Counted from the stretch's first letter, positions 8,229 through 64,000 are shown. The stretch: DNA of 64,000 nucleotides from an uncultured Holosporaceae bacterium (GCA_964532905.1 CAZHJM010000001.1:121593-185592); one strand, 5' to 3'. The notes: a model not told the origin generated them from the letters alone. Translations and numbers: made by a program.

Positions 8229-8426
8229 ATGTTGAAGCAATTAAGAAAGATATTAAAAAATTCTAAAGGGGCGACGGCTATAGAATACGCGCTTATTGCA
8301 AGTTTAATCGCTGTTGTAGCAATTACTGGAATGAAATCTATAGGAAGTAAGGTCAAAGATCAACTTAATAATATAGCAAATGCTATAAACGATCCATTAA
8401 ATGCAGGTAATGCAGTTAATAATTAA
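8229..8426 (+). CDS. flp: Flp family type IVb pilin
   Basis: 65 aa. It has the KGATAIEYALIASLIAVVAI Flp motif (G/xxxxEY prepilin-peptidase site plus hydrophobic helix) and a GGAG Shine-Dalgarno sequence upstream. Confidence 0.85.
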   Translation: MLKQLRKILKNSKGATAIEYALIASLIAVVAITGMKSIGSKVKDQLNNIANAINDPLNAGNAVNN

Positions 8427-10350: not shown

Positions 10351-10364
10351 ATTTTATGCTTTCG

Positions 10365-11911: not shown

Positions 11912-11926
11912 AATTATAATCCTTTC

Positions 11927-13498: not shown

Positions 13499-13509
13499 AG
13501 CAAACTCCT

Positions 13510-13902: not shown

Positions 13903-13918
13903 TATTTGCCTCCATATG

Positions 13919-18178: not shown

Positions 18179-18336
18179 CATTCATTTTTACGCAATCATA
18201 TTCTTATAATTCATTGTGATAAAAAAGTAACATTTATTTAAAATTTTAAATAAATTACAAATACTTTCTTCCAAAGATGTTATATATAATAACGTATTGT
18301 ACATGTTGTATAATGTTTTTTAGTAAGGAGAATAAT

Positions 18337-19559: not shown

Positions 19560-19900
19560 AATTTCATAAAGGATAGCATTATATTAGTAAGATTTCTAGA
19601 TTAAATATTTTTAAAAAAGTAAATAATACCCCTCTTTAATTAGAGATAACTTAAAGAATTTTTGTTTACACATACTAGAGCATTATATATAATAATTCCT
19701 ATGGCATGTATGCCAAAAAAGTTTTTTTAATAACGATTTTATATTTAGGAACGTTTTAAAAGTGTTATTATCTGGTACATATTATTTTTCTATTTTTATT
19801 ATGTCGCTGATTTTTTTGTATCAAATAAAGCGATATAGAATTTTTTTAAAATTAAAACAGTGTCTTTTGAACGTTCTGACTAGAAACTATGGGGATCACT

Positions 19901-21976
19901 ATGTCAAAAGATATATTAATAGATGCATTGCATCCGGAAGAAGTCAGAATTGCAGTAGTATGCGATGGAAAATTAGATAAATTCGATTTTGAAATCTCTT
20001 CAAAAGCTCAAATAAAAGGTAATATATATCTAGCTAAGGTCATAAAAGTAGAGCCGTCCTTACAGGCTGCTTTCGTTGATTATGGTGGAAATAAACATGG
20101 GTTTTTAAGTTTTAGTGAAATTCATCATGATTATTTTCAAATTCCTGTAGGAGATCGTGAGGAATTGGAGGCTCATATTCAAAATGCTATTAATGCTCAT
20201 GCTATAGAAAATGATAAAACCGTTGAAGAAATAGATCCTAAAGATATTGTTAGATTAAGGTATCAATTTTATAGAAGGTATAAGATCCAAGAGGTTATAA
20301 AAAAACGTCAGATAATGCTTGTGCAGGTGACAAAAGAAGAAAGAGGCAATAAAGGAGCAGCAATTACAACATATATATCACTAGCTGGTAGATATTGTGT
20401 ATTGATGCCGAATACAGAAAAAGGTAGTGGAATTTCAAGAAAAATTACAGGTATTTCAGATAGAACAAAGTTAAAAAAGATAGTATCTGATTTAAAAATT
20501 GAAAACGGTAGTGTGGTCATTAGGACAGCAGGCGTTGGTCATACAAAATCAGAAATAAAAAAAGATTTTGATTACTTAGTAAACATGTGGAATGAAATTC
20601 GAAGAGATACTTATAAGTCTAATGCCCCATGCTTAATACATGAAGAATCTAGTATCATAAAAAGGTCTCTTAGAGATATGTATACTAAAGATATTGATGA
20701 GATCATTGTTGAAGGCGAAGAAAGTTATAAAGTTGCAAGATCTTTTATGAAAAAGCTTATACCTAGCCATGTAAAAAAAGTAAAACTTTATGAAGATAAA
20801 AGTATTCCTCTTTTCAGTAAATATAAAGTAAATGAACAAACAGAACAAATCTATTCTACTAGAGTGGAACTGCCTTCAGGTGGTTACTTAGTAATAAATA
20901 ATACTGAAGCATTAATAGCGATAGATGTTAATTCTGGAAAATCTACCAAAGAAAGAAATATTTCTGGTACAGCTCTAAAAACTAATCTTGAAGCCGCGGT
21001 AGAGATTGCTCGTCAGTGTCGTTTGCGGGACTTAGCAGGATTAGTTGTAGTAGATTTTATTGATATGGAAGGGAAACATAGTAATATTCAAGTTGAAAGA
21101 TGTATAAAAGAAGCATTTCGCAATGACAAGGCAAAAATTCAACTTGGAAGTATCAGTAATTTTGGATTATTAGAGTTTTCTCGACAACGTTTAAGATCAA
21201 GTATTGCTGATGCAAATATGGTTGTATGTCCATATTGCCAAGGTACAGGTTTTATGTGGTCTGATGAGGCATTAGCAGTAAGAATTCTAAGACAAGTAGA
21301 AGAATCATGTATAGAACAAAATATACAAGAGGTTATAGTAACTTTATCGCCTAGTATTGCTCTTTATTTGTTAAATAATAAACGTTCGTTTATATCAATG
21401 ATTGAGTCAAGAGGTGATTTAAAAATAACATTTAAAGCAGATCCTAATATTACTTCAGTTAATTTTCATATTGGAAAAATCTTTAAGACATCATTGATAG
21501 AAGAAGATAATGGTGATGAAATCTTTGAAACAAACTTGACTGAAGTTACGAGTGTAAATAAAAGGAATTATAAAAAAATTAGAACCGATAAACAAAATAG
21601 CAAGCCTGATGAAGAAGAAATTAATACAAGAAGCACTTCAATTAGGAAAAATTTAAGAAGAAATAGAACAAGAAGGAATGATAATAAAGTAATTTCTGAT
21701 TTTGAGGAAAAAGAACAATTATCTGATGATATGAATCAGAATCCCATTATGAAAGAAGAAATTAAAGAAGGACAGGAACCTATTGCTAAAGAAGATAAAG
21801 TCGATCTTAATTTTTCTGCAATAATGGATGAGTATCAACAAGATATTGCTAGCAAGGTTGTAGAGTCATATAGAAAAGAGATAAATGAAATGTCAAATAT
21901 TCAAAAAGGTATGAATATTACGCCACCAAAAAGAATTGGTTGGTGGCAGAAATTGTTACAGAAACCAAAAAAATAG
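19901..21976 (+). CDS. rne: ribonuclease E/G family endoribonuclease (RNase E-like)
   Basis: S1 domain (GNIYLAKVIKVEPSLQAAFVDYG). Catalytic core ALIAIDVNSGK and GLVVVDFIDM. Zn-link CPYCQGTG. Charged low-complexity C-terminal tail. Start set at MSKDILIDA. Confidence 0.9.
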   Translation: MSKDILIDALHPEEVRIAVVCDGKLDKFDFEISSKAQIKGNIYLAKVIKVEPSLQAAFVDYGGNKHGFLSFSEIHHDYFQIPVGDREELEAHIQNAINAHAIENDKTVEEIDPKDIVRLRYQFYRRYKIQEVIKKRQIMLVQVTKEERGNKGAAITTYISLAGRYCVLMPNTEKGSGISRKITGISDRTKLKKIVSDLKIENGSVVIRTAGVGHTKSEIKKDFDYLVNMWNEIRRDTYKSNAPCLIHEESSIIKRSLRDMYTKDIDEIIVEGEESYKVARSFMKKLIPSHVKKVKLYEDKSIPLFSKYKVNEQTEQIYSTRVELPSGGYLVINNTEALIAIDVNSGKSTKERNISGTALKTNLEAAVEIARQCRLRDLAGLVVVDFIDMEGKHSNIQVERCIKEAFRNDKAKIQLGSISNFGLLEFSRQRLRSSIADANMVVCPYCQGTGFMWSDEALAVRILRQVEESCIEQNIQEVIVTLSPSIALYLLNNKRSFISMIESRGDLKITFKADPNITSVNFHIGKIFKTSLIEEDNGDEIFETNLTEVTSVNKRNYKKIRTDKQNSKPDEEEINTRSTSIRKNLRRNRTRRNDNKVISDFEEKEQLSDDMNQNPIMKEEIKEGQEPIAKEDKVDLNFSAIMDEYQQDIASKVVESYRKEINEMSNIQKGMNITPPKRIGWWQKLLQKPKK

Positions 21977-21985
21977 GAAAATACA

Positions 21986-23320
21986 ATGACAGTAAAAGTT
22001 AGGTTTGCTCCTTCTCCGACAGGATTATTACATGTAGGTAACGTTCGGATAGCAGTACTTAATTATTTATTTGCTAAAAGTAATCATGGGAAATTTGTTC
22101 TTCGTATAGATGATACCGATAAAGAAAGATCTAAGACAGAATTTGAAAAATCAATTATAGAAGACCTAAAATGGATAGATATTCAATGGGATGAGTTTTA
22201 TAAACAATCAGAAAATCTTGCACAGTATGATAAAGCAATTGAGCATTTAAAGAAAATAGGTCGAGTCTATCCTTGTTATGAAACAAAGGAAGAATTATCT
22301 CTCAAACGTAAGATACAAAGTTCTCATGGGAAACCACCGGTTTATGATAGAGCATCACTTTACTTATCCGATGAAGATAAAAAAACTTTTGAATCAAAAG
22401 GAATAAAAAAATATTGGCGTTTCAAATTAAAAGAAGATTCAGTTATTGAATGGAATGATTTAGTTCATGGAAAAATTTCAATTCCTTTAAGTAGTGTTAG
22501 TGATCCAATAGTAATAAAACCTGATGGTTCTTATGTTTATACTTTTGCATCTGTTGTTGATGATATAAATATAGGTATTACTCATATTATTAGGGGAGAT
22601 GATCATATTACAAATACAGCGGCTCAAATAGATATATTTAGAGCAATAAGTGAGTCAAATCCTGAGTTTGCGCATGTTCCTTTGCTGTCTTCTATTGATG
22701 GACAAGAAGTATCCAAGAGAACAAATTCGTCTTTAACTATAATTAATTTGCGTAAAAATGGAATGGAACCGCAAGCTATTGTTAATTTACTCGCAACTTT
22801 AGGTACCTCTAATAATGTAAATTACAAAGATAATTATAATGATTTAATTCAAAAATTTTCTTTTAAAAAAATGAGTTTATCATCTCCAAAATTTAATACA
22901 GAGGATGTAAGGCAATTAACTAAAAAAATTATATCTGAAAAAAACTTCAATGAAGTTCAATCTAAACTAGAACATTTAAATTTAAAAAATAAAGCTGAAA
23001 TTTTCTGGGAAACAATTAAAGGAAATGTTAATACAATAAATGATATCGATTTTTGGTACAATGTGTTTTTTAATCCGATACAGCCATGCTGTGAAGATAA
23101 GCAATATATATCTCAAATGTTAACAACTTTATCTATATCTACTGATTACGATACGTGGCTGAAAAACTTAATAAAAAAGACTAACCGGAAAGGAAAGGAT
23201 TTGTTTCACCCAATACGTTTAGCTTTAACCGCTCAGGAAAAAGGACCAGAATTAAAAAAAATATTCATGTTATTGGGATATGATGAAGTTAAAAATAGAT
23301 TAGAAAATAATTTAAAATGA
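21986..23320 (+). CDS. gltX: glutamate--tRNA ligase
   Basis: RFAPSPTGLLHVGN (HIGH region) and VSKR (KMSKS-like); 444 aa. Confidence 0.92.
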   Translation: MTVKVRFAPSPTGLLHVGNVRIAVLNYLFAKSNHGKFVLRIDDTDKERSKTEFEKSIIEDLKWIDIQWDEFYKQSENLAQYDKAIEHLKKIGRVYPCYETKEELSLKRKIQSSHGKPPVYDRASLYLSDEDKKTFESKGIKKYWRFKLKEDSVIEWNDLVHGKISIPLSSVSDPIVIKPDGSYVYTFASVVDDINIGITHIIRGDDHITNTAAQIDIFRAISESNPEFAHVPLLSSIDGQEVSKRTNSSLTIINLRKNGMEPQAIVNLLATLGTSNNVNYKDNYNDLIQKFSFKKMSLSSPKFNTEDVRQLTKKIISEKNFNEVQSKLEHLNLKNKAEIFWETIKGNVNTINDIDFWYNVFFNPIQPCCEDKQYISQMLTTLSISTDYDTWLKNLIKKTNRKGKDLFHPIRLALTAQEKGPELKKIFMLLGYDEVKNRLENNLK

Positions 23321-24675
23321 AAACATTACATTTATATAATTCTCTTTCTAACAAATTAGAGGATTTTGTTCCTATAGATAAAAATAATGTAAGAATGTAT
23401 GCATGTGGACCTACTGTATATTCTAGTCCTCATATTGGTAATGCCCGTCCTTTAGTTGTTTTTGATGTACTTTTTCGTCTTTTACGAGAATTATATGAAA
23501 ATGTGACTTATATACGAAATATTACGGATGTTGACGATAAAATTAATAAAAGAGCACATGAACGTGACATTAGTATTCAAGAATTGACAAATGAAGTTAT
23601 AGAAGAATTTCATAAGAATCTATCTTTTCTTAATATTTTGCCAGTTACATTTGAGCCTAGAGCGACTTTTCATATTCTAGAAATGTTAGACATAATTCAA
23701 AAATTAATTGATAAGGGCTATGCATATCAGGCTAATAATCATGTTTTATTTCGTGTAAAAGCTTTGAAAAACTATGGGATATTATCTAAACGAACATTAG
23801 AAGAGATGATTCCTGGCAGTCGGGTGGAAATTGCTACATATAAAGAAGATCCGCTAGATTTTGTACTATGGAAACCATCGAAAGAAAATGAGCCGTTTTG
23901 GGATAGTCCTTTTGGTAAAGGTCGTCCAGGCTGGCATATAGAATGTTCAGCTATGAGTTATAAATACCTTGGGGCACAATTTGATATTCACGCTGGTGGA
24001 CAAGATTTAATTTTTCCTCATCATGAAAATGAAATAGCGCAAAATTATGGTGCTTTCGATACTCTAATGGCGAATTATTGGATACATAATGGATTATTGT
24101 TAGTTAATAATCAAAAAATGTCTAAGTCATTAGGAAATATTATATCTCTTAATGAAATTTTACAAAAATATGATGGTGAAATTATTAGATATGTTTTACT
24201 ATCCACACATTATCAAAAAACCTTGAATTGGACAGAACAAATAGTGCATCAGGCAAAACAATCATTGGATAGGATGTATGGAGCTTTAAATTTAGCATCA
24301 GAAATATTTGATATTAGTAATATTAGTAAAAATACTTTAGATGCATTGTGTTCAAATTTAAACACTCCTTTAGCATTACATGAATTAAATTCAATTACTA
24401 ATAAGATTTATAAATCAGCTGAAAAAAAAGAAATAAATTATCTTTGTTCTGTTTTAAAAAAAGATGCGAATGTATTAGGATTATTGCAAAGAGAAAATTG
24501 GTTTCAACAACAAAATATAATTTCACAAAAGGAGATAGAAGCATTAATTAAAGAACGTAACCTTGCAAAATCTCAAAAGGACTATGTAAAAGCAGATCAA
24601 ATTAGAGATTATCTTTTATCAAAAAATATAAAAATAGAAGATACAAAAAATGGAGTAAATTGGAAAACTTTATAA
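23317..24675 (+). CDS. cysS: cysteine--tRNA ligase
   Basis: CGPTVYSSPHIGNARP (HIGH) and KMSKSLGN; 452 aa. It shares an ATGA overlap with gltX. Confidence 0.95.
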   Translation: MKTLHLYNSLSNKLEDFVPIDKNNVRMYACGPTVYSSPHIGNARPLVVFDVLFRLLRELYENVTYIRNITDVDDKINKRAHERDISIQELTNEVIEEFHKNLSFLNILPVTFEPRATFHILEMLDIIQKLIDKGYAYQANNHVLFRVKALKNYGILSKRTLEEMIPGSRVEIATYKEDPLDFVLWKPSKENEPFWDSPFGKGRPGWHIECSAMSYKYLGAQFDIHAGGQDLIFPHHENEIAQNYGAFDTLMANYWIHNGLLLVNNQKMSKSLGNIISLNEILQKYDGEIIRYVLLSTHYQKTLNWTEQIVHQAKQSLDRMYGALNLASEIFDISNISKNTLDALCSNLNTPLALHELNSITNKIYKSAEKKEINYLCSVLKKDANVLGLLQRENWFQQQNIISQKEIEALIKERNLAKSQKDYVKADQIRDYLLSKNIKIEDTKNGVNWKTL

Positions 24676-24695: not shown

Positions 24696-25038
24696 GAGTT
24701 CTTGCAAAGTTATTTTTTGTTTTTTGGATTCTGATAATTAGAGGTTCTAAGACGTCATTTTCTGTGTCTGTAAGATATTATTATATACTACCTCTAGCGT
24801 TATTACACGAAGTCATATAGTCTTCGCCTCTTCCATTTATTACGTGTTGATCCGTAGCAATTTTGAAATATAGATGACGCTACTCTTGTCTGGCGTCACT
24901 GCAAGGAGCTGGCAACGTGGCAATCTATAATATGATGGGAACAGAGTAGCACGATGAAAATACAAAAATGGATTCTTACGCTTGTCACACCCGCTCAGAA
25001 ATGACTTAAAGCGAAGAATTTGACTTTCACAAGATATC
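24696..25038 (+). repeat. repeat cluster 6: composite element D[P-Q-R] with terminal inverted repeats
   Basis: Starts gagttcttgcaaagttatttt...gattctgataattagagg and ends gaatttgactttcacaagatatc, which is an inverted match to the start. The interior holds agcgttattacacgaagtcatatag, ggcaacgtggcaatctataatatgatgg and gattcttacgcttgtcacacccgctcagaaatgac. Confidence 0.85.
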
Positions 25039-26088
25039 TTCTTCCATTAACTCAATATCCTGTTTTTCTCCATTATTAATTGTAAAGATATGTAAATTTC
25101 TATTGAGACCTTTATCTTTTTTTAATTCAAAATTACCTAATAAACCTTCAAATTCTATATATTTTGTAAGAAAATTTTCATTTGGTCTAGCATTTATTAA
25201 TTTTATTATATCAGCAGTTATCAAACTAATAACAGTAGGTTGTTCTTTGAATATATGAAAATACTTCTCTACAAAATTACGTTTTTCTTTGCTATCTGTG
25301 TAAGCAAATTTTACTCCATTCCATTTATAAGGATGAGATAAAACTATTGAACTTAATGAAAATACTGGAATATTTATGTTACTAATATTTATTATAGGTT
25401 CACATATAAATATTGATTTTTTTCCGCAATTTTCTATAAGTTCAGAAATCTCGTCTTCGGAGATATTATTATATCGTACTAGATTAATACTATCTTCATC
25501 AAATCCATATTTTTCTCCAATCTGTTGAATTATATTCGCTATATTATCGTAATATATCCCTTTAGGGAGTAATAATTCCATAGAATTTATTTTATTTTGT
25601 TTGCAATAACTAAAGATAGTTCGTAATTCCTCTTGGGGGGATAATCCACAAGCATATATATGTCCATTGTTTAAATTTTCATTATTAGAAAGTGAAAAAA
25701 TTGGAACTGATTGAAAAATTGTTGCAAAACGATGCGCTTCTGAAAAAAATACAGGTCCAATTACAGCTTTTAGATTTGGGAAATTATCAATATTTATTTC
25801 TTCTGAAAAATCGTTGGTATTAATAGGATAAATATCTAAATTTGGATCCTGATTTGCTATTATCGCGGCCTGTAAAATATTTTGACCAAGTTTGGCGTTT
25901 GTTCCTGTAAGAGGTAATAATAAAACAACTGATTGCTTCATTTTTCGCTTACCGAGAATTTCTAAATATTGATCATAAGAATAATTTGTACGTTCTTGTT
26001 GTTTTCTGGTAATTTCTGTTTCTGGTATTTTATCGGTAGAACAAGCAGTAATAATAAATAATAAAACTAATTTAAATATATAATCCAT
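25027..26088 (-). CDS. lipoprotein with periplasmic-binding-protein-like fold (LppC/LpoA-like)
   Basis: Lipobox FIITAC. VVLLLPLTGTNAKLGQNILQAAIIA resembles the LpoA/LppC-type PBP N-terminal motif. The assignment is tentative. Confidence 0.45.
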   Translation of the reverse strand: MDYIFKLVLLFIITACSTDKIPETEITRKQQERTNYSYDQYLEILGKRKMKQSVVLLLPLTGTNAKLGQNILQAAIIANQDPNLDIYPINTNDFSEEINIDNFPNLKAVIGPVFFSEAHRFATIFQSVPIFSLSNNENLNNGHIYACGLSPQEELRTIFSYCKQNKINSMELLLPKGIYYDNIANIIQQIGEKYGFDEDSINLVRYNNISEDEISELIENCGKKSIFICEPIINISNINIPVFSLSSIVLSHPYKWNGVKFAYTDSKEKRNFVEKYFHIFKEQPTVISLITADIIKLINARPNENFLTKYIEFEGLLGNFELKKDKGLNRNLHIFTINNGEKQDIELMEEDIL

Positions 26089-26525: not shown

Positions 26526-27104
26526 ATGTTGAATTTAGTTAGAGTTACAATGATTTTTTTGTTTATTATAAATGGTCTTTCTTATTCATTAGATAAGCAT
26601 TTTAATGAAGTTATGAAAAGAGCGGAAAATTTAAATCCTACACAATTTTTAGATGAATTAAGGAGTATAAAAAAGGATTCTATTACTGCAAAGGCATTCT
26701 TGAGTTGTTATGGAGGTGCTGATTTTCATGAGGAGGAAGACTTTGCTGATAAGCAATTCCCGTCAGAAGTTTATAGAAATATTTCTAATATATCCGGAAT
26801 TCTAGGAAAAATTTATTATAATAGAGGAGCTCAAAGTTGGGATGATGACAGTTCTTTAAAATTTGCAAGTGTTTTATTGAATAACAATGGAATAGATGTT
26901 CTTGTTCGTGATTTTAATAGCAGTCTTAGGCTGTCATATAGATTGTTTGATATGCAACAGAATAGGCAGAGATTGAGTGAAGCCTTAAAAAATATGCGAC
27001 TTCATGCTGAAGAACTTCAAAAAAGTGAAAAGTTTAAAACGAACCCTAAAGATGAAGAACTTGAAAAAGCTCTTGCTGAAATAAAAGGTCAAATGAATCT
27101 TTAA
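26526..27104 (+). CDS. hypothetical secreted or membrane-anchored protein
   Basis: 192-aa ORF with an N-terminal hydrophobic segment (VTMIFLFIINGLSYS). It is followed by a strong terminator. No family recognised. Confidence 0.5.
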   Translation: MLNLVRVTMIFLFIINGLSYSLDKHFNEVMKRAENLNPTQFLDELRSIKKDSITAKAFLSCYGGADFHEEEDFADKQFPSEVYRNISNISGILGKIYYNRGAQSWDDDSSLKFASVLLNNNGIDVLVRDFNSSLRLSYRLFDMQQNRQRLSEALKNMRLHAEELQKSEKFKTNPKDEELEKALAEIKGQMNL

Positions 27105-38520: not shown

Positions 38521-41500
38521 ATGAAAATAAAGGTAAAATCTTTAATAAAGAAGTTTTTTTCTAAAGAAAAAAGAGGTTTTGCTCTTATTTTAGTTGCTAT
38601 TTTTATTCCCGTAGCGTTAATTGGAATACAATACGGTATAAAGCTCGCACAAAAATCTGATAAGGATGTAAGTACATTTGAGACACCGTATGCGGTTGTC
38701 CAAAAAATTGCAAATAATTTCAATCCAGGACGTTCTTGGGATGAACAATATGAATGTTTATATTCACTGGGCGCACAAGAATATAATAATCGCTACTATA
38801 ATGTTAGTAAAAGTATGGTATTTACACCAAAATTGAATCATTTATTAACGAAACAAACTAGTTCTTATTCAGCTAAAAATTATGTTGAATTTTATAACAC
38901 TCATAGCAGATTAGGATCTCTTTATTATGGAAGTTATGAAAAATTAAATTTTTTATTTACTTCATCACTATTTTTTGATGCAATGACATATTGTACTCCA
39001 ACATATCAAAATGTATCAGGAGAAAATATTCAAAAAACCGATAATATTTCACCAAATACAAAAGAGAAAACATATACAATATATAGTGAAAGATATCAAG
39101 ATAATATCGCTGAAGAAACATCATCAGGTAATTACATTCCTGAATATAATGAAAAAGCAACTGAAATGCAAGTGAAAATAAATTCAACAAATAATCAGAT
39201 AATTGGTACATTTCCTAGACTAAAAAGAAAAGCTACAGCTACGTTACCAAAATGTAATGTTGATATAATTTTAGCAATACCAACAAACCATGCAGCATGT
39301 ACAGAAGACAACTCAAATGATTCAGAAATAGCAGATACATCTGATTCAAACAGTATTGAAGAAACACCTATTCGTCAAATAGCATCAGCCTGTCAGGATT
39401 TTTTAAGGAATAATTTCCTTCACACGGTTGGAGTGGCTGTAGGAGTTATTCCTTATTCAGGAAAAATATCTTTACCACCGGATAGAAGCGCTTGGACGAC
39501 GCGTTATAAAATGTCTCCTATTGATCCAGAAGAAACATTAGTCAAATATCCTTATATTATTCAAACAATGTTTTATGGATCTGATGGTCAATTTGGAGGG
39601 GAGTTAATAGACGATTCAAATGGGAAAAGTAATGACAATTATGGAATATATAAAGATTGGGGAACTTCAGATATAGGTCTCCCGATTATGAGTAGAAGAG
39701 GAAAGGAGACTACATATAGAGGCATACGTATATATAATATGGATAAAATAATTAATTTTGATGAACCCGCAACAGATGAAAGTAAATTTATACAAATGAA
39801 TCCTAATCCTTGTTATTTAGGATATTGTAATGCTTTAGCAATGTTATGTGAGAGAAATTGTCCAACATATTGGGCAAATCCTTATTATATTACCGAACTT
39901 ACTGCTGATATACAGAGTGTAATACATGATTTAGAGCTATTTATACCTTTTGATGATCCACACAATAAGTCTAACTTTTTATTTTTACCTGTTGTTTGGG
40001 CAGGAAATCTTTTAAGCTCTTGGACTAAACACCCTTCAGATGCAGATCAGACTGCGAGTGTTATGGAACCAAAACGAAATGAGAAAAATCAGGTTATAAT
40101 TATAATAGCGAATGCTCCTGACAATTTTGAACCTGTCGAATTGACTTATTTGGGCTTTAATAATGATGCTTCAGAAGTGCCAATGTTTGAGAGTGATACA
40201 GCACAATTTAGTAATGGCGGATATGTATATAAAGATGGAGGATATCAAGGAGTAAAAGGAGCGATAAAGTGTAGTATTAACAGTGCACATATTACAGAAA
40301 ATATAGGATTAATTTCCGAAGGAAAACAAACTATGAAAATTTCATTTCCTCATAAAAGTATAGTAAAGATAGTAGCATCTCGTGGAGATCCTGCTACGGT
40401 TACATTTTTTGAAGATAATGGAGTAGAGGATAATGTAATGACAGACCCTGCGACGGGAGAAGATTATTCTTTGATAGAAACATTCGAAAAAGAAGACACA
40501 AATAATAAGGGAAATAATGTTATTCTTTCAGAAAGTACATCTAAAAAATCTAGAACTCATAGAGTTATTGGAACTACCAATTTCTTCTTTAATGGAGATA
40601 CTAATATCAGAAATATGATTAATAATAAAGTTGCTTTACAGGACAGTTCGACAACTGGAGGGAAAAATTTCGGACATAATTTGTCTGTAAAAAAATTGAA
40701 ATATAGAGCTAAAAGATGTGCTTTAAATCGTTCAACTTTATCGAATCAAGTTTTACGTTTCTATGGATATTATAATAGGAATGAATTAAATAAGGATTTA
40801 ATAGAAAATACAGATTGTCATTCAGACAATCAAAATATAACTAGAATGGATCCTGGAATTGATTGTTCAGATAATGCAAGGAGTGATTCTGGAGGAAATA
40901 ACGGTTCTAGTAAAAAATGGGGATATTCAACAAGTTCTACAGGATATTATATTAATTCTTACAATTTTCAGCCTAAATTCAAAGGAGTACGAAATCCAAA
41001 TAGAATAGTATATGCTACTGATAATTTCCCAAATAATAATGTATTGTATAGTGAAGGGGATGATTATTTAATGACTATTAAAAAGAATAATACATGGGAA
41101 AGAAAGGATTCTGTTCAATCTGAAATAAATTCAAATAAAGTATTATACAGAGTTACTGAATTTGGCAGTTATGATACAGGAACAGACTATTCTCAGATAT
41201 TTTTTGGTAGATATCAATATTATAGTAAACTAGCTTATTATGATGATTTTATTTCTAAAAAAACAAGGACACGCAATATATATCAAACGATTAAAACAAC
41301 CCGTAATTATGTAAATCAGTGTAAACAACCAAATTCAGTACAACTTACAACAACTTCAGGAAACAACACGAATACGTCATATACATGTGATTATGAAAAT
41401 ACAAATGCCGGTGTATGTTGTTTTGATCATGGACAATTTTCAGGTAAAGCATCACCATATACTTTTAATGAAAATGATAATAATTCTTTTGCATGTAATA

Positions 41501-44500
41501 CCATAAATTGGAATGATAAATATCCGGATTCTCATAATAATTGGGAATATTATGATACTTCTTATGCCCCATACCAAGATAGAAAATTACAATATCAATG
41601 TAATTCAATTGGGAAACGGACGGAAGATAAACAAACATGTGATCATCCTAATTGTCAGCCAAAAGTAGAATTCAAAACACAATTTAAACAAGTGCAGAAA
41701 CAAAGTGTTGATTGTACTTATGATAGTTGCCATGAATTTAGTAATCCCACAACAACTTTTATTCCATATTCAGAATATGAATGTACTAATTGTAATTATA
41801 ATGGGAATAAGACATCATGTAATGCTTGTAATGGAAAAGATACACAATATTCAGGTGCAAAAACTGATGATGCTGTAAAATCAGATGATAAAATACAAAT
41901 AGAAAAATGGGTAGAAAGTGAAGAAATAAAAAGGCAATATGTGTTTGAAAGTGTGGATTCGACAGGTAAGGTATTATCTACAGCTTATAAGATATGTAAT
42001 ATAGATGGAAATAACTGTCAAAATTCAACTAAACCAAATACAGAATTAAAAAATAAAATATCTGATTTTTCTTCAGGAAAATATGAATTATCTCCATATA
42101 GATATAATCTATATAATTTTTTTCTCTTAAATGCTAATACTGTTGAGCAAACTAACTTTTATACATATGATCAATGTACTAATAAGTGTACTAAGGTAAG
42201 TACAGCCCCTTTTATTTCAAGTAAAAATAATAATAAATTAAAAAACAATCAAGGTATATGTTTATTAGCAGAATCAGGAGCTGAAAGAGATCCTAATCTT
42301 AATATCGATGAAACAAATTGGATATGTTTTTGTGGAGATGCAGATTTAAATTTGGAGTTTATTGCTAGAGATTCTCCAACTCTGAATTTATTACATATTA
42401 AAAATGATGTATATCGTGTATCTTTTGATAATCAAGCTGTTACTAATACTACAGGAACAGAAATACATACATTTTCAGATGATGCAGATACTCAAACATT
42501 TTATATTATTCCAGAACAAATAATGGATGAAAAAGACAAAGACGATAACTATTATATAAAATTAGAAATGGGGGACAATGTTAGTATTGTCTCAATAGAA
42601 ATAAATAATCGACCTTATAAAATTGAAAAATCAGGTGATATAATGTTCAATGGGAAAAGTATGAAAAATATAACAGAAAAGATATCATCAAAAGAAACAT
42701 TAGAATTTGTTACAAATCTTAAAGAATCTTTTAAATGTGACGTTGTTGTACCATATTTTTGGATAGGTAAAACCGATTTTAGACAGGAAGAAGGTAATAC
42801 GTATATCTATTGTAATACAACAGGATTTTCAACAGAAGTAACAGTTAAAGTTCCATCTGCAGGAAAGCAAGATTTTTATAAAAAATCTTCGACACAATGT
42901 GATATATCTTCTAGTAGAAAGCTTAAATCTGTAACTTTTAATGGTTATACAATTCCTAGAGCTAGTATAAATAATATAGTAATGTCAGGTAATAATAAAA
43001 AATTTAATGCAAATAATCCTATAGTTACAACTTGGAATGAGAAAGAAATAGATCCAAAATATATTTTATCGAATTCGAAACACTTTTCATTTTCTGGAAG
43101 TTCAACAGATTCTGGGTTTAATGTGAATGCGGGCTGTGAATTTCAGTCATTAAATTTTAGTAATATTTCACAAAACGGAGGTAGTAAGCAAGCAGGAACA
43201 AGTAATGGGAATAGTAGTGTTGAAATTTCCTTTAAAGAAACTTATAAATTTTATAATGGGGAAAGAGACATCAATGTAAGTGGGAATAGCCCTATTGAAA
43301 TATATGGGAAAGGAACCAAGCCAGGAGGTGATAATTGTACAAATGCTGTTCTTTATTATGGTGATAGTGGTGGACAGTTTATGACAGGTAACAAAGAAAA
43401 AAGTGAATCAGGTACAGCTTATTGTACAAAATTGAATAATGCAAGAGTTCTTTTCAATGGATGTGGCAGAATTGATGGATCAGAATATAAACAAACATCA
43501 GCTTCACCGGATGTAGATCAAATAAATGCAAAGACAAATGGTAATAAAGCAAGTTTCCCAGGTACAGCTACAGTAAAATGTTCAATAAAAGGAATACAGC
43601 ATGAGGACCATGAAACAAAATCATTAAGTAATCCTGTCGGCAGTTTTTCTGACAGTAGTTTGGGATATAGATATAACAATATAACTGTATCAAATATATA
43701 TATTCATGAAAACAATCCTGGTTCCTGTGTAGAATTATACAGTAATGGACAATTTGGTAGTTCAAATATAGGTCTTGGAGGGAAAACCATAACTACAATA
43801 TCAAATTTTAGTATTAAATCAGGTACGAATTATCGTTCACCATCTTATAAAGTTAGAAATGCTATTCTATCATTAGAAAATTCTGGTGGACAAATAGGAC
43901 ATAAATACATAAATAGTAGTAATAACAATTACATAACAGTTGAAATTTCCCCTGATGAATATGATTTTGAATTACAGAGTGATGGGAAATATCATGTGAA
44001 GCTTGATTGTAGAAATGTTCAACTTTCTAATTTTAGATTTTCTAATACTGATGAAAATGTTAAAGTTTATGATCATCCGGACATTAAAAAATCTAATGAA
44101 AAAGGTGAAGCTATTCAAAATATTCGTCTTTTTGATGGTGGTGGGATTAATGGAGCTAATAATAAGGATACTTCTAAAATTTATGGTGATATGGAAGTTA
44201 ATTTAGGTAATTATAAATGGTCACCAGTTCAAAAACTGTTCTATTATGTTAAGCAAAATGGCAGTGAAGATGAATTTTCTCCAAATAATACAATAGGAGA
44301 CTTTTTCGTAAATATTTGGGATCAAAATGACGATATTCCTCCTATTAAATGGAAATTAAAGGGCAAAATACAAAATAATATATATAATGATCCGGATTTT
44401 GGTGAATTTAAAAATAATTACGGCTTTTCAGGATTACATCGTATGTTTATTCCTTATGGAGTGTATGATTCAGGTGAAGATATTACTGCTGGATTCTCGG

Positions 44501-44883
44501 AAGCTAATAATTCTGCCCTTGTTTTTGCTGGATTTACAATTCCTGCAAACTTTATGTTAATTAACAATGGATATCAACAAATATCTAGCTCTGATGGTAT
44601 AGCTACAAAGGTTACAGAACCAAATACAGTATTACCTAAAGTTGCTTCAGATGCGTGTAGTAAATTAAAATCTTTCGCAACAGGAAATAGCGCGCCTGAT
44701 ATCTATTTAATAAAGTATAGAACAAGTGGGCCTTTATCATTAGAATCTTGTGTTGGCGGAGGTAAAGTTCTAAGTGCTTCATCAGAAGATGATTTAAAGA
44801 AAGTTCTATCCGATTTAGCTGTAACAATAAAACAAGCTAATTTGAAAAATGATTTAATAATAGAAATGGAAGATGTGAAGTAG
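38521..44883 (+). CDS. giant (2120 aa) TadG-like pseudopilin/vWA-domain surface protein with a large Cys/Asn-rich insertion
   Basis: Uninterrupted 6.4-kb ORF with AGGAAA upstream of the ATG. The N-terminal KRGFALILVAIFIPVALIGIQYG is TadE/G-like. vWA-like strands and helices occupy residues ~245-540 and ~2035-2105. The ORF itself is very likely real. The family call is inference. Confidence 0.6.
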   Translation: MKIKVKSLIKKFFSKEKRGFALILVAIFIPVALIGIQYGIKLAQKSDKDVSTFETPYAVVQKIANNFNPGRSWDEQYECLYSLGAQEYNNRYYNVSKSMVFTPKLNHLLTKQTSSYSAKNYVEFYNTHSRLGSLYYGSYEKLNFLFTSSLFFDAMTYCTPTYQNVSGENIQKTDNISPNTKEKTYTIYSERYQDNIAEETSSGNYIPEYNEKATEMQVKINSTNNQIIGTFPRLKRKATATLPKCNVDIILAIPTNHAACTEDNSNDSEIADTSDSNSIEETPIRQIASACQDFLRNNFLHTVGVAVGVIPYSGKISLPPDRSAWTTRYKMSPIDPEETLVKYPYIIQTMFYGSDGQFGGELIDDSNGKSNDNYGIYKDWGTSDIGLPIMSRRGKETTYRGIRIYNMDKIINFDEPATDESKFIQMNPNPCYLGYCNALAMLCERNCPTYWANPYYITELTADIQSVIHDLELFIPFDDPHNKSNFLFLPVVWAGNLLSSWTKHPSDADQTASVMEPKRNEKNQVIIIIANAPDNFEPVELTYLGFNNDASEVPMFESDTAQFSNGGYVYKDGGYQGVKGAIKCSINSAHITENIGLISEGKQTMKISFPHKSIVKIVASRGDPATVTFFEDNGVEDNVMTDPATGEDYSLIETFEKEDTNNKGNNVILSESTSKKSRTHRVIGTTNFFFNGDTNIRNMINNKVALQDSSTTGGKNFGHNLSVKKLKYRAKRCALNRSTLSNQVLRFYGYYNRNELNKDLIENTDCHSDNQNITRMDPGIDCSDNARSDSGGNNGSSKKWGYSTSSTGYYINSYNFQPKFKGVRNPNRIVYATDNFPNNNVLYSEGDDYLMTIKKNNTWERKDSVQSEINSNKVLYRVTEFGSYDTGTDYSQIFFGRYQYYSKLAYYDDFISKKTRTRNIYQTIKTTRNYVNQCKQPNSVQLTTTSGNNTNTSYTCDYENTNAGVCCFDHGQFSGKASPYTFNENDNNSFACNTINWNDKYPDSHNNWEYYDTSYAPYQDRKLQYQCNSIGKRTEDKQTCDHPNCQPKVEFKTQFKQVQKQSVDCTYDSCHEFSNPTTTFIPYSEYECTNCNYNGNKTSCNACNGKDTQYSGAKTDDAVKSDDKIQIEKWVESEEIKRQYVFESVDSTGKVLSTAYKICNIDGNNCQNSTKPNTELKNKISDFSSGKYELSPYRYNLYNFFLLNANTVEQTNFYTYDQCTNKCTKVSTAPFISSKNNNKLKNNQGICLLAESGAERDPNLNIDETNWICFCGDADLNLEFIARDSPTLNLLHIKNDVYRVSFDNQAVTNTTGTEIHTFSDDADTQTFYIIPEQIMDEKDKDDNYYIKLEMGDNVSIVSIEINNRPYKIEKSGDIMFNGKSMKNITEKISSKETLEFVTNLKESFKCDVVVPYFWIGKTDFRQEEGNTYIYCNTTGFSTEVTVKVPSAGKQDFYKKSSTQCDISSSRKLKSVTFNGYTIPRASINNIVMSGNNKKFNANNPIVTTWNEKEIDPKYILSNSKHFSFSGSSTDSGFNVNAGCEFQSLNFSNISQNGGSKQAGTSNGNSSVEISFKETYKFYNGERDINVSGNSPIEIYGKGTKPGGDNCTNAVLYYGDSGGQFMTGNKEKSESGTAYCTKLNNARVLFNGCGRIDGSEYKQTSASPDVDQINAKTNGNKASFPGTATVKCSIKGIQHEDHETKSLSNPVGSFSDSSLGYRYNNITVSNIYIHENNPGSCVELYSNGQFGSSNIGLGGKTITTISNFSIKSGTNYRSPSYKVRNAILSLENSGGQIGHKYINSSNNNYITVEISPDEYDFELQSDGKYHVKLDCRNVQLSNFRFSNTDENVKVYDHPDIKKSNEKGEAIQNIRLFDGGGINGANNKDTSKIYGDMEVNLGNYKWSPVQKLFYYVKQNGSEDEFSPNNTIGDFFVNIWDQNDDIPPIKWKLKGKIQNNIYNDPDFGEFKNNYGFSGLHRMFIPYGVYDSGEDITAGFSEANNSALVFAGFTIPANFMLINNGYQQISSSDGIATKVTEPNTVLPKVASDACSKLKSFATGNSAPDIYLIKYRTSGPLSLESCVGGGKVLSASSEDDLKKVLSDLAVTIKQANLKNDLIIEMEDVK

Positions 44884-59352: not shown

Positions 59353-59859
59353 TTACAATTGGGATATTAATGCAAGAGCTTGTCCTTTTAAAAACTGATT
59401 ATTTATTACAGTTTGCAAAGACACTGAGTCAGTAGTATCCCCCTTTGTAAAAATAAAAGCATTTCCTCCACCGGCACGTTGACGACATAAAGAACAATGG
59501 ATATTATCAAGGGTTCCTTTAATCAGTTTAATTTTAGGTTGACAGTCAAAATCTGTTTTTTCTATTGCTATATAACATAAGATTTTTTTATGTTCAAAAT
59601 CTTCTATTTTTACAGACTGTTGTTCAAATGTTTCTTTATTAAGTATAACTGTAAACACACCATCCTTAGTTAAAGATATGCTATTGCTTCCACTACGATT
59701 TTCTAATGTATTCCTTAATGAAATAACAGGATTATTTGTTTCAATAACCTGAGCGATAAATTGCCTACCATTAATACCTTGAACATTAATAGAGATACTA
59801 TTCATGCTTATCACTTCAAAACAAAAAACTATACAAAAAAGAAAAATATTTTTTATCAT
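59353..59859 (-). CDS. hypothetical secreted protein
   Basis: 168 aa with signal-like MIKNIFLFCIVFCFEVISM. No family recognised. Confidence 0.45.
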   Translation of the reverse strand: MIKNIFLFCIVFCFEVISMNSISINVQGINGRQFIAQVIETNNPVISLRNTLENRSGSNSISLTKDGVFTVILNKETFEQQSVKIEDFEHKKILCYIAIEKTDFDCQPKIKLIKGTLDNIHCSLCRQRAGGGNAFIFTKGDTTDSVSLQTVINNQFLKGQALALISQL

Positions 59860-59930: not shown

Positions 59931-61169
59931 CTAAATCAAAAATGCCACAGGATCATTTTCAATATTAATTTTAGAAAAAAATAAATCCGTCATTGCCCAT
60001 ACCATGGCATCTAATCTATCAGGTGATTTTTGACCTGGTTCATAAGTAACCATTTGCATTTCTAACTCACGAAATTGATAGGCATGAAAAATCATCTTTT
60101 TTTGATATAAAATAGCAATTGGTGAAGCTCTTTCTATTTTAGATTTATGTGCATATACAGGCTTTAAAATAATATTATTGTCTATTGATTTAAGTAAATT
60201 CGTCAATAACTCTCCTCCTGCATTCGTTTCTATTACAACTTTTTTAGCTCGATATTTTCTATAAAGTTCTACAATACGATATGCCCATTTATCAGGAGGC
60301 AAATTAGCACTAGCATCCTCTAAAACATAAGCTTTACCAAATCCATCTTTCCCAGCTACAATAATTCCTGTTTCATCGCTACTTTCTTTACTAGTAATTG
60401 CTGGATCAACCGCTATTATAATATTATCCAAATAATGAGGAGGTGATTTATAACAATTTTCGATATCTGACCATCCCCATAATGTATTTTGTCTATCTTC
60501 AACAATTTCTGCATAAATTTCTTGTGCTTCTAGACGCGTACCTTTTAAATATTCTAATTGTTGTAAAAATGTTGGAGATAAATTTTCTTTATTCTCCAAA
60601 GAAGACCCTCTTACCGTTATAACATCTTTACGAGCAATTAAATCTTTTAAAAATTGCAATGGTCTAGGAGTAGTTGTTAAAATCATCTTGGGATCTTTCC
60701 CTAATCTTAATGACAATGATAATTGGTCAAAAGTTTCCCTAGGATATGCAAACTTCGCAAATTCATCTACCCAGGCGGCATCAAATTGTGGTCCCCTTAG
60801 TTGTTCATAATTTTCTGCCCCATATAAAGTAGCAATAGCGCCATTTCCCCATGTTAATAATCTCTTAGTATGGTTATAAACTAATTTATCATTTTTATTA
60901 TTTATAGATAAAATTCCACTTTCACCTTCCACCATAACTTGTTTTGCTTCTTGAATAGTATTAGCAATTAAAGCAATACGTTTATATTTTCCTGATATTA
61001 TTAATTTACGAATACCTTCGGCGGCTGCTCGAGTTTTTCCAAAACCTCTACCGGCTAAAATTAACCAAATTCGCCAATCACCTTGTGGCATTAGTTGATT
61101 AGGACGCGCTATTTCTTCCCAGGGGGGATTTTGAAATTCTTGAAAATCATTTTGAACAGAATAATTCAT
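59931..61169 (-). CDS. phage/GTA-type terminase large subunit
   Basis: 412 aa. It has the Walker A-like LILAGRGFGKTRAAAEG and the Walker B-like FDAAWVDEF, which end in the catalytic Glu. The nuclease half has IIAVDPA and DRLDAMVWAMTDL. The protein resembles alphaproteobacterial GTA g2 proteins. Confidence 0.85.
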   Translation of the reverse strand: MNYSVQNDFQEFQNPPWEEIARPNQLMPQGDWRIWLILAGRGFGKTRAAAEGIRKLIISGKYKRIALIANTIQEAKQVMVEGESGILSINNKNDKLVYNHTKRLLTWGNGAIATLYGAENYEQLRGPQFDAAWVDEFAKFAYPRETFDQLSLSLRLGKDPKMILTTTPRPLQFLKDLIARKDVITVRGSSLENKENLSPTFLQQLEYLKGTRLEAQEIYAEIVEDRQNTLWGWSDIENCYKSPPHYLDNIIIAVDPAITSKESSDETGIIVAGKDGFGKAYVLEDASANLPPDKWAYRIVELYRKYRAKKVVIETNAGGELLTNLLKSIDNNIILKPVYAHKSKIERASPIAILYQKKMIFHAYQFRELEMQMVTYEPGQKSPDRLDAMVWAMTDLFFSKINIENDPVAFLI

Positions 61170-61480: not shown

Positions 61481-61556
<76 letters not shown>

Positions 61557-62588: not shown

Positions 62589-62984
62589 CTAATACTTCAA
62601 TTTTTCAGTAATAGTTTGCTGAACATCTTTTTTTCTAGTCGAACTAAATTCACAACTATAAGCATCTTTTAAACAAGCTCCAAAAATTCCAGCAACTGTA
62701 GAAACTATCCCAACGACTTCGCCAGGAAGATCATTTTTATAAGTAGTTAATATTAAAAGACAGAATATCAAGCCAGATGCCGCTCCAACAACCATAATCG
62801 TTAGCCTTTTATTTCTAATAACCGAATTAATTACATTGACATTTCCTGAGTTTTTTTCATCGTATTCTTCGATATTTTTATCAATATTGCTACATTCAGG
62901 TAATCCATTTGTTTTTTTAAAAACACCTCCAATATTATTTTTTACTTGATTTATTGAATCTAAAACTATTTTATCTATTGTCAT
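62589..62984 (-). CDS. small membrane protein, 2 predicted TM segments (holin-like position)
   Basis: 131 aa. Hydrophobic segments are LTIMVVGAASGLIFCLLILTTY and VVGIVSTVAGIFGACL. It lies immediately downstream of the SleB-like hydrolase. Confidence 0.4.
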   Translation of the reverse strand: MTIDKIVLDSINQVKNNIGGVFKKTNGLPECSNIDKNIEEYDEKNSGNVNVINSVIRNKRLTIMVVGAASGLIFCLLILTTYKNDLPGEVVGIVSTVAGIFGACLKDAYSCEFSSTRKKDVQQTITEKLKY

Positions 62985-62985
62985 A

Positions 62986-63405
62986 CTAATCTCCTTTTTT
63001 TAAGCTGTAAAAATAATGATTACCAAATATTCGTTTTGGTGAAATATATGCTGCCCAATATGGTTTTATTGTTTTTTCATGATAATGATCACAACCATCT
63101 GTTAAATCTGGCCAAACTTCATATAAAACCTTATTTGCAACTAAATTACATGTTTTATATATTTCAGAATTTGTATTAACTTCTTTAATTTTTTTATAAT
63201 TTATATCATTATGATTCCAGCAGGAAAATTGATATGGAGCTAAACAAACTTCTGAAATACTTTTAGCAAAATGTTTTTTAAAACGATTGAATATAACGTT
63301 TGCCACCGCTATTAAAGAAGAGAGCCCAAAAAGAGATAATTCTCCGCGAGCTTCTCCATAAATAGTTTTTGTGGCTATGTCTAAATCATAATCTGAATAA
63401 TTCAT
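62986..63405 (-). CDS. cell wall hydrolase, SleB/Hydrolase_2 family
   Basis: 139 aa. TIYGEARGE, VANVIFNR and YQFSCWN are hallmark motifs of the family. Confidence 0.85.
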   Translation of the reverse strand: MNYSDYDLDIATKTIYGEARGELSLFGLSSLIAVANVIFNRFKKHFAKSISEVCLAPYQFSCWNHNDINYKKIKEVNTNSEIYKTCNLVANKVLYEVWPDLTDGCDHYHEKTIKPYWAAYISPKRIFGNHYFYSLKKGD

Positions 63406-63435: not shown

Positions 63436-64000
63436 TTATTCTTTTTTTAATGTTTCGAATTTTATTACAACTAAATTCGTCCCAATAATCTGATAGACTG
63501 CACAACTTTTATAAGTTATAGTTTCTTCATTTTTTATCAATTGAATTTCACAACCTCCACCTCTTATTTTATCATATAAATTAAGAGATGGAGGAAATGA
63601 AAAATTCACTTTTTTATAATTTCTAGTATCTTTTCTAACATCAATATTTTTATTCAATAACGATGAAATAGTATATGATTTTATTTTTAAATCTGTCTTG
63701 TCAAATACGCTTCTACATACACAAGGTTCGATTTGTTTTAGATGGCATCCGTAAAAATAGAATCCTCCATACGGATAAAATTGACAAGATACTTTACTGC
63801 CATCATCATAAATAATTTCCTGATTAATGGATTGTTCTAACAAACCAGATGCACCACAAATATCAAAATCCAATTGTAATAAATTATCTGAAAAATCTAA
63901 TTTAAAATTTTCTGTCTCTTTTCCTGTTAAATCTTCTTTTTTTCCGTCATGTATGTAATATCCACTATCTTCATATTTTAAATAAACAGCTTTGCAAAAA
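63436..64000 (-). CDS. hypothetical protein, 5' end outside the window
   Basis: The reading frame stays open upstream of the TTG listed at 63873, all the way to the window edge (...FCKAVYLKYEDSGYYIHDGKKEDLTGKETENFKLDFSDNLLQLDFDICGAS...). It is co-directional with the hydrolase. Confidence 0.5.
   Translation of the reverse strand, partial: FCKAVYLKYEDSGYYIHDGKKEDLTGKETENFKLDFSDNLLQLDFDICGASGLLEQSINQEIIYDDGSKVSCQFYPYGGFYFYGCHLKQIEPCVCRSVFDKTDLKIKSYTISSLLNKNIDVRKDTRNYKKVNFSFPPSLNLYDKIRGGGCEIQLIKNEETITYKSCAVYQIIGTNLVVIKFETLKKE

Follow-up and report, generated by a model that had tools for sequence, protein, structure and literature searches.

The 64,000-nucleotide stretch of DNA analysed here, referred to as the window, comes from an uncultured Holosporaceae bacterium (GCA_964532905.1, CAZHJM010000001.1:121593-185592), an alphaproteobacterium of the gut, and contains an open reading frame (ORF) encoding a giant protein of 2120 residues (38521..44883, stop codon included; the ORF and all of its parts described below are on the + strand). 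We propose that this protein is a TadG/CpaL-type minor pilin of giant size and modular build that acts as a pilus-tip adhesin, and we put the probability of this mechanism as a whole at roughly one half. The architecture, which comprises a pilin-like helix and a von Willebrand A (vWA) domain that is split, devoid of its MIDAS (metal ion-dependent adhesion site) and extended by a giant insertion, is highly probable. From this architecture and its context we infer the location at a pilus tip, the adhesive function and the host target.

The preliminary description of the window had proposed that the vWA domain of this protein is split by an insertion, and structural models bear this out. Two spliced constructs of the window protein were folded with AlphaFold2, the window protein being the first row of the alignment and full-length homologs the other rows. 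Model 1 comprises native residues 215-640 and 1880-2120 (667 residues), and model 2 comprises native residues 1-325, 455-535 and 2030-2120 (497 residues). Both insertion-deleted constructs are confidently predicted, with a predicted template modelling score (pTM) of 0.82 each and a predicted local distance difference test score (pLDDT) of 78.3 for model 1 and 82.0 for model 2. The elements of model 1 follow one another as beta1, alpha1, beta2, beta3, a partly disordered stretch (326-457), strand 458-461, helices, beta4, beta-rich regions at 552-608 and 1891-2005, and then alpha4, beta5, beta6 and alpha7, most of the C-terminal segment (beta5-beta6-alpha7) having pLDDT values of 86-98. The two constructs exhibit the same order of strands and helices, with a core pLDDT above 90, and in both this predicted order is that of vWA domains (beta1-alpha-beta2-beta3-alpha-alpha-beta4-alpha-beta5-alpha-beta6-alpha).

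When compared with the PDB by Foldseek, model 2 gave 63 matches at E ≤ 1e-3, and 50 of the 50 listed are vWA domains. These include, with TM-scores given on the target, the CD11b I domain (0.73, root-mean-square deviation 4.7, 255 columns), vWF A1 (0.62-0.73), Rpn10 (0.63-0.71) and TFIIH p44 (0.73), as well as ITIH1, complement C2a/factor B, collagen VI and NorD. The alignments span 238-391 columns, mostly about 240-265, and the targets are isolated vWA domains of about 190-210 residues. As an alignment of about 250 columns is roughly as long as the entire vWA part of the construct (256 residues), its C-terminal piece included, a single vWA domain is predicted to be assembled from residues 242-325, 455-530 and 2034-2110. 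The first segment (residues 242-325, 39244..39495) would provide beta1 (244-254), alpha1 (283-298), beta2 (303-312) and beta3 (316-318). The second (residues 455-530, 39883..40110) would provide a strand at 458-461, which contains the invariant E459 as well as T461, helices at 464-471 and 488-498, and beta4 (523-530). The third (residues 2034-2120, 44620..44880), with pLDDT values of up to 98 in both models, would provide alpha4 (2034-2051, with C2046), beta5 (2060-2066), beta6 (2083-2086, with C2077 just before it), alpha7 (2089-2107) and a terminal strand (2113-2118). The elements previously picked out by eye (beta1, alpha1, beta2, beta4, beta5 and beta6/alpha7) coincide with the predicted ones, and every peptide quoted in the preliminary description was found at its place in the translation: KRGFALILVAIFIPVALIGIQYG at 17-39, VDIILAIP at 247-254, IRQIASACQDFLRNNF at 283-298, VGVAVGVIPYSGKI at 303-316, ELTADIQSVIHDL at 459-471, QVIIIIANAPDN at 523-534, ACSKLK at 2045-2050, DIYLIKY at 2060-2066 and LESCV...LAVTI at 2074-2103.

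Model 1, searched in the same way, retrieved nothing at E ≤ 1e-3. Its weak matches are CBM6/35/36 carbohydrate-binding modules and APC10 jelly rolls (E about 1e-2), with SpaC at rank 16 and Mfa5 at rank 19. This failure is likely due to the fold still being broken by about 500 residues of other domains, and the jelly-roll similarity may stem from the predicted beta-sandwich at 1891-2005, the aligned region not being reported by Foldseek. Sequence profiles did not detect the domain either. Pfam and NCBIfam searches at E ≤ 10 with the whole protein and with pieces 1-100, 215-640, 641-1160, 1161-1879 and 1880-2120 gave nothing relevant, leaving only DM13 and GLAA-B barrel matches at E > 0.07; the vWA profiles (PF00092, PF13519, PF13768 and others) matched neither the whole protein nor its pieces, and none of 17 family N-termini matched PF13400 or PF07811 (0/17, E ≤ 10). 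The preliminary description had held that the absence of a TadG or vWA signal at both ends would speak against it, and at the level of sequence profiles (Tad/PF13400 and VWA) no signal was found at either end. A sequence-profile search of the PDB with the family alignment had Top7 as its sole match, on the last helix, and this was rejected as spurious. Profile-based annotation overlooks the whole family; structure prediction on insertion-deleted constructs recovers the fold.

It is very unlikely that the vWA assignment is an artefact of the spliced constructs, which would make the protein a giant, beta-rich and unrelated one, either on the surface or secreted as an effector, with a mere likeness to a Rossmann-like fold at its ends. 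The lack of any sequence model detecting a vWA domain, the absence of a significant Foldseek match for model 1 and the 15 columns misaligned at the second junction of the model 2 alignment would all be compatible with such an artefact. However, two independent constructs agree on the element order and on a well-predicted core, model 2 has 63 significant matches, the 50 listed all being vWA domains, with TM-scores of up to 0.73 on whole domains, the two ends of the protein are the best-conserved parts of the family, and the C-terminal motif aligns with the C-terminus of TadG.

The metal site of the vWA domain appears to be lost. The MIDAS, with the pattern DxSxS...T...D, is found in many vWA domains, but not in all of them. 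Its equivalents in the giant protein were placed from strand ends and from a comparison with the stretch DIAFLIDGSGS of CD11b, rather than from a structural alignment. The end of beta1 reads D248-I-I-L-A-I-P254-T255-N256-H257-A258, and the DxSxS equivalent, P254 to A258 (39280..39294), exhibits P, N and A where the canonical D-x-x-x-x-x-D-x-S-x-S has metal residues. After beta4, A530-N531-A-P533-D534 is found in place of the canonical T-D-G, and T461 occupies the position of the MIDAS Thr. In a 40-member alignment, from which all family residue counts and insertion lengths given here were taken, P254, N256, N531, P533 and E459 are present in 40/40 members, T255 in 39/40, and A258 and T461 in 35/40 each. 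The absence of a canonical MIDAS, which had been noticed earlier from the AIPTNHA stretch of the window protein, thus holds, as far as the aligned sequences tell, for the whole family. As nowhere in the protein is constraint stronger than at the MIDAS-equivalent site, a new conserved role is favoured over decay. We suggest that this site docks the base of the giant insertion.

The giant insertion (residues 531-2033, 40111..44619; boundaries from the AlphaFold2 secondary structure) comprises 1503 residues in the beta4-alpha4 loop and starts at the invariant N531, in the place of the MIDAS Asp. In vWA and I domains the last MIDAS Asp is found in this loop, which is located on the ligand-binding face. 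The insertion is present in 40/40 aligned relatives, with a length of 909-1728 residues, and it is an extreme case of natural domain insertion, a single loop of a fold of about 200 residues accommodating about 1500 residues. The N-terminal side of its proximal neck (residues 531-790, 40111..40890) is conserved and beta-rich in the strands of model 1, and it contains the motif NAPDNFEPxELTYLGFNND. The C-terminal side (residues 1801-2033, 43921..44619) is also conserved and predicted to be rich in beta-strands, and it includes the beta-sandwich predicted in model 1 at residues 1891-2005 (44191-44535). Between the two necks, a Cys-rich part with 24 Cys (residues 934-1271, 41320..42333) is followed by the fastest-evolving distal part (residues 1291-1800, 42391..43920), which shows the lowest conservation in the family. 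The middle of about 1500 residues had been described as rich in N/S/T/Y/C and as belonging to no recognised family. Its length and its composition (N 12.6%, S 8.8%, T 9.2%, Y 7.8% and C 4.2% in residues 791-1290) agree with this description, and pieces 641-1160 and 1161-1879 gave nothing relevant in Pfam or NCBIfam. A self-BLAST for internal repeats found none.

A further insertion of about 130 residues (insertion 1, residues 326-454, 39496..39882), which had not been noticed in the preliminary description, separates the first two vWA segments. It is conserved, is partly disordered in model 1 and ranges from 117 to 178 residues across the family, and its four-Cys motif NPNPCYLGxCNxLAMxCExxCP is invariant.

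The gene is functional and under purifying selection. Its closest relative is an intact protein of 2117 residues (79% identity by BLASTP) at locus L001, which shares the upstream synteny of PRPP synthetase, Cu-oxidase_4 protein, LpxC and TsaD with the window, these neighbours being 90-95% identical. With respect to this relative, the ratio of nonsynonymous to synonymous substitution rates (dN/dS) is 0.28 overall; a chance ORF or pseudogene was rejected on this ground and on the conservation of homologs. The preliminary description had asked whether the ORF is disrupted in related strains, and in this closest relative it is not. By region, dN/dS is 0.20 for residues 1-240, 0.09 for the vWA region 241-530, 0.11 for 531-790, 0.34 for 791-1290, which includes the Cys-rich part, 0.55 for 1291-1800 (62.7% identity), 0.15 for 1801-2033 and 0.20 for 2034-2120. 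The distal insertion evolves several-fold faster than the core and also faster than the neighbouring genes. The family conservation profile is high at residues 1-790, with a peak at 240-640, and at 1800-2120, and low in between.

Members of this family appear to be confined to Holosporaceae-like bacteria. A word-indexed search retrieved 42 homologs of 1288-2445 residues, all annotated as hypothetical and all without a precomputed Pfam domain, and those with a named source are from metagenome-assembled genomes (MAGs) of Holosporaceae or Alphaproteobacteria. The family Holosporaceae comprises endosymbionts of protists. When one genome per species was scanned, 62 loci were found, and essentially all of them are in Holosporaceae-like MAGs of rumen (buffalo, yak, deer) or termite-gut origin; many MAGs exhibit two or three matching loci, some of which are perhaps pieces of one gene. 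An exhaustive phmmer search with a spliced query (residues 1-535 and 2030-2120) against 1.84 billion representatives at E ≤ 1e-3 retrieved 135 proteins (clusters at 50% identity), which are long family members or short fragment-like matches; no recognisable insertion-less relative of about 600 residues and no bridge to ordinary TadG were found among these representatives. With regard to the earlier question of whether the insertion is lineage-specific, all 40 aligned relatives carry it and the search recognised none without it. A tblastn search of plasmids with the trimmed protein gave no match.

With regard to the N-terminus, which had been read as a TadE/TadG-type pseudopilin segment, the layout of helix and sheet predicted in model 2 is pilin-like, while no match to PF13400 or PF07811 was obtained. 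The pilin-like module (residues 17-241, 38569..39243) comprises a basic stretch, G19, a hydrophobic segment, helices at 20-66 and 73-96, and a beta-sheet at 103-241. Helix 20-66 is one helix of 47 residues that opens with the hydrophobic segment. The pLDDT of the module is mostly 60-95; vWA matches fill the Foldseek list of this model, and no pilin match was obtained. G19 precedes the hydrophobic segment in 38 of the 40 members. There is no Glu at position +5 after G19, and no canonical G/xxxxE(Y/F) processing motif. In the type II secretion system pseudopilin GspK, a missing Glu at +5 is typical of the tip-most minor pilin, and by analogy its absence from the giant protein would fit such a position.

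Two TadG references were compared with the family by hhalign: one from a Ralstonia tad locus (L068:25488-27104), which matches PF09977 above the cutoff and PF13400 weakly, and one of 453 residues from a Rhizobium plasmid (L070:4956-6317), whose homologs carry PF13400 and are named TadG. The target in the latter case was a profile of 16 Rhizobium/Sinorhizobium TadG sequences. Two matches only were obtained with this profile; they are colinear and located at the two termini of the giant protein, where the preliminary description had seen a resemblance to TadG. The N-terminal match is in register, G19 corresponding to the Gly of RGGN and Y38 to the Tyr of DY (E 0.0031, probability 10%). The C-terminal match covers the LxxC...AsSe.eL motif, LESCVGGGKVLS-ASSEDDLKKVLSDL aligning with ALSDCASSKSLFLSASSSAEITAGLSAL (E 0.04, probability 1.3%). 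The resemblance to TadG is thus partly upheld, by the architecture, the predicted fold and two weak colinear matches, and it is not upheld by any significant family match. The giant protein probably works like TadG/CpaL and descends from it; at the sequence level it is a candidate member of that family.

The closest described system is CpaL, a TadG ortholog in which a pilin-like module is combined with a vWA domain that a beta-rich insertion (residues 204-384) interrupts; CpaL was modelled at the pilus tip (PMC12607857). Like CpaL, the giant protein is predicted to have a hydrophobic pilin-like N-terminus followed by a vWA domain with a beta-rich insertion, and it is encoded in a genome that encodes a Flp pilin. 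Its insertion 1 (326-454) apparently corresponds to CpaL 204-384, and the Cys-containing C-terminal ending C....A.S..eL, as seen in Rhizobium TadG, is common to both. In contrast, CpaL has a canonical MIDAS (D160, T162, S164, T470 and D515), whereas the giant family exhibits an invariant P-T-N-x-A plus N, and it adds a second insertion of 900-1700 residues in the beta4-alpha4 loop, which makes the protein about four times larger. Unlike cpaL, the giant gene lies outside a tad operon, and its product has no significant match to PF13400 or to the Rhizobium or Ralstonia TadG. With Rhizobium TadG it shares the RG-hydrophobic N-terminus, a Tyr about 19-23 residues further on, beta1, beta4, a C..vK helix, an lYtEY-like beta5 and the C-terminal C.s....sAsS..ei...L motif, in an identical order of elements. 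Nevertheless, Rhizobium TadG keeps DTSPS and TDG, and only a few dozen residues join its beta4 to the C..vK helix.

Interchangeable tip complexes of Tad pili have also been described, with TadG as their backbone (PMC12075869). The KilN/TadG tips of Myxococcus xanthus and others resemble the giant protein as large TadG-type minor pilins that bear, at the end of the pilus, an additional domain whose fold is unknown, and a genome has several paralogous tips that differ in specificity (PMC12075869), just as the giant family is multi-copy. The genes kilL-M-N (TadE/F/G-like) are adjacent triplets, whereas the giant genes are mostly solitary and only loosely linked to TadE/F-like genes (seven loci, within 10 kb). 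More distant likenesses are found in PilY1/PilC and Streptococcus sanguinis PilB (type IVa pili) and in SpaC and Mfa5 (sortase and type V pili), which exhibit a vWA domain within a large multidomain tip adhesin; SpaC and Mfa5 are among the weak Foldseek matches of model 1. Several of these proteins need the MIDAS for adhesion, as in the MIDAS-dependent adhesion by Kingella PilC1 cited in the CpaL paper (PMC12607857), whereas the giant family is devoid of it. Their secretion and assembly signals are also different.

Pilus genes are found both in the window and in related genomes. A gene for an Flp/Fap major pilin of 65 residues with the motif G/ATAIEYALI (MLKQLRKILKNSKG/ATAIEYALIASL...) was found by a regular-expression scan and ORF analysis at 8229..8426 (+ strand) and matches PF04964 (E 2.2e-15, 56.6 bits against a cutoff of 32.2). 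It is located 30 kb upstream of the giant ORF, close behind tRNA-Arg (7817-7893) and tRNA-Thr (7992-8067), where a gap of 2 kb separates nrdD from a dicarboxylate symporter gene, and no other tad gene is nearby. This gene had been missed in the preliminary description. Solitary flp genes are also found on Sphingomonas and Phyllobacterium plasmids (L066 and L067).

A family of proteins of about 270 residues exhibits a TadE/F-type N-terminus (...RG/AILIEFAxxIPxL...) with a Glu at +5. In L009, L013, L028, L034, L060, L061 and L064/65, their genes are found no more than 10 kb from giant paralogs; the window contains no such gene. This linkage, at about 7 of 60 loci, was judged to be well above random placement. 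Assigned by their motif and by Pfam matches below threshold, they are located at L009:15699-16502, L034:6314-7168, L060:7938-8798 and L064:2709-3536, at L061:6102-6827 (-) and L028 at about 19856-20513 (-), and at the start of the L013 contig.

Related MAGs also contain type IVa pilin-like ORFs with KGFSLIE (L014:2240-2878 (-) and L039:7531-8199 (-)), the former matching N_methyl PF07963, and a PilB/GspE-like ATPase with GPTGSGKTT (L021:21611-22957 (-)). Parts of both Tad-type and type IVa-type pili, as recognised by motif and profile, thus occur in this group of MAGs. Most Holosporales have incomplete type IV pili, and Tad pili are found in some families (PMC9992710). The giant protein might accordingly belong to a type IVa pilus, as a modular pilin or a tip adhesin, by analogy with S. 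sanguinis PilB, in which a pilin is fused to a vWA module, or, functionally, with PilY1/PilC, and its N-terminal family consensus, K-G-[FY]-[AV]-A-I-L, does resemble G/F-T-L-I-E except for the Glu. We consider this quite unlikely, as the pilin of the window is Flp and not type IVa, the best profile matches, though weak, are with TadG at both termini, and the nearby pseudopilin-like genes bear TadE/TadF-type motifs.

Several observations weigh against a TadG-type pilus-tip adhesin. The packing of the three vWA segments was read from pTM, pLDDT and Foldseek coverage and not from measured contacts, and the two constructs together cover residues 1-640 and 1880-2120, to either side of a middle part of about 1240 residues. 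No Tad, TadE or VWA model of Pfam or NCBIfam matches the protein or its relatives, hhalign found no match between the family and the Ralstonia TadG, and the probabilities obtained with the Rhizobium profile are low and, as sequence comparisons, not statistically significant. The proteins of about 270 residues have PF07811 (TadE) and PF16964 (TadF) as their top Pfam matches, with E about 1e-3, which is below threshold. Besides the solitary flp gene, no tadV/cpaA, cpaF, secretin or other tad/cpa machinery gene is found in the 64 kb of the window. A comparison of neighbouring genes across 59 loci found no gene common to more than five, and in two JGI contigs the giant gene is also surrounded by housekeeping genes and not located in a tad locus. 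Finally, a folded protein of about 240 kDa is very large for passage through a secretin.

The same fold might never enter a pilus: the N-terminal helix would then be an uncleaved signal-anchor, and the protein an inner-membrane, envelope-spanning scaffold or a periplasmic protein. The missing Glu5 and canonical processing motif, the position of the gene alone among housekeeping genes with no Tad machinery genes in the window, and the size of the protein all point in this direction, and the TadG of A. actinomycetemcomitans was reportedly first described as membrane-anchored. We nevertheless regard this alternative as rather unlikely. A fast-evolving distal module that varies among paralogs would be expected of a surface-exposed protein more than of a periplasmic scaffold. 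The window contains an Flp pilin gene, and TadE/F-like genes are found near paralogs. In addition, current models place TadG/CpaL-type proteins at the tips of pili (PMC12075869, PMC12607857), and TadG has been reported in pilus fibre preparations, as noted in the CpaL paper (PMC12607857).

In the mechanism of a TadG/CpaL-type tip adhesin, the prepilin-like N-terminus and the pilin-like head would carry the vWA domain without a metal site, and a module of 900-1700 residues, beta-rich and partly Cys-rich, would grow from the beta4-alpha4 loop on the old MIDAS face. The vWA domain and the two conserved necks would form a rigid socket, and the distal insertion would be an exposed and variable binding surface, a reading based on the variation of the distal module among paralogs and species and on its fast evolution. 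The N-terminal helix would build the protein into the tip of an Flp (Tad) pilus or, failing that, anchor it in the inner membrane. The surface thus presented could contact host structures of a gut protist or of the animal, and the several paralogs per genome could serve as alternative tips.

A broader form of this idea is possible but doubtful: the vWA domain would have been turned from metal-dependent ligand binding into a structural socket, with an invariant P-T-N/N set in place of its MIDAS residues, a hypervariable host-binding module would have been grafted on the same face, and several interchangeable tips per reduced genome would equip Flp pili for attaching to the host protist or entering it. 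If this were true, the family would be the main host-contact determinant of the lineage and a class of pilus adhesins not described before. To our knowledge, almost nothing has been established about host-contact factors in Holosporaceae-like symbionts of the rumen and termite gut. Pilin-anchored, MIDAS-less vWA proteins are concrete candidates for host attachment in these uncultured bacteria, whose genomes, although small, retain one to three genes of this family, each 5-7 kb long and all annotated as hypothetical. The family would also extend the emerging view of TadG/CpaL proteins as Tad pilus tips that can be customised.

With a GC content of about 30%, the window is rich in AT. As previously described, the ORF of 2120 residues is the largest in it, the next-largest having 700 residues. 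It starts with an ATG, and an AGGA motif is located 8 nucleotides 5' of this codon. A scan for promoters and terminators gave results no better than chance. The genes around it are housekeeping genes, with those for PRPP (phosphoribosyl pyrophosphate) synthetase, the Cu-oxidase_4 protein, LpxC and TsaD upstream, and those for PrmA, IF3, transketolase and GAPDH downstream. Most of the remaining window is also occupied by housekeeping genes, including dnaA, nrdD/nrdG-like genes, secDF, tRNA synthetase genes, the RNase E gene and ftsH.

The surroundings of some relatives differ. In L002 (SIG54), which belongs to a more distant relative, the giant gene is located at 10001-16438 and the PRPP synthetase-Cu-oxidase_4-LpxC-TsaD block at 20822-24668, i.e., downstream; either the region is rearranged, or a second paralog follows TsaD past the end of the locus. 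A hypothetical protein of 1217 residues without a Pfam match (L063:16692-20345 (-)) is encoded directly downstream of, and convergent with, paralog P0008. In a single case, a VgrG-like gene (L064:17699-19921 (-); Phage_GPD, Phage_base_V and Gp5 C-terminal) is found 2 kb downstream of paralog P0019, with a small DUF4280 ORF beside it (L064:16738-16869 (-)).

Elsewhere in the window, dnaA is located at 2458-3807 (-), and nrdD and a radical-SAM gene, which is probably that of the nrdD activase, within 4113-7071 (-). The presence of the anaerobic ribonucleotide reductase gene nrdD beside dnaA suggests that the organism is an anaerobe. The cumulative GC skew reaches its minimum at about 16-18 kb, and because both the skew and the gene orientation change sign near 18 kb, the replication origin may be located there, about 15 kb from dnaA, rather than at dnaA. 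A gene for the large subunit of a phage terminase (Terminase_6N/6C, E 5e-25) is found at 59931-61169 (-), beside the gene for tRNA-Lys (61481-61556), and a gene for a cell-wall hydrolase is nearby at 62986-63405 (-). The adjoining ORFs (59353-59859, 62589-62984 and 63436-63873) have no Pfam match, and the terminase gene may be part of a gene-transfer agent or of a prophage remnant amid the housekeeping region. Three ORFs of 192-353 residues (18277-19086 (+), 25027-26088 (-) and 26526-27104 (+)) gave no significant Pfam or NCBIfam match, the one of 353 residues (25027-26088) exhibiting a weak LppC-like match (E 5e-4).

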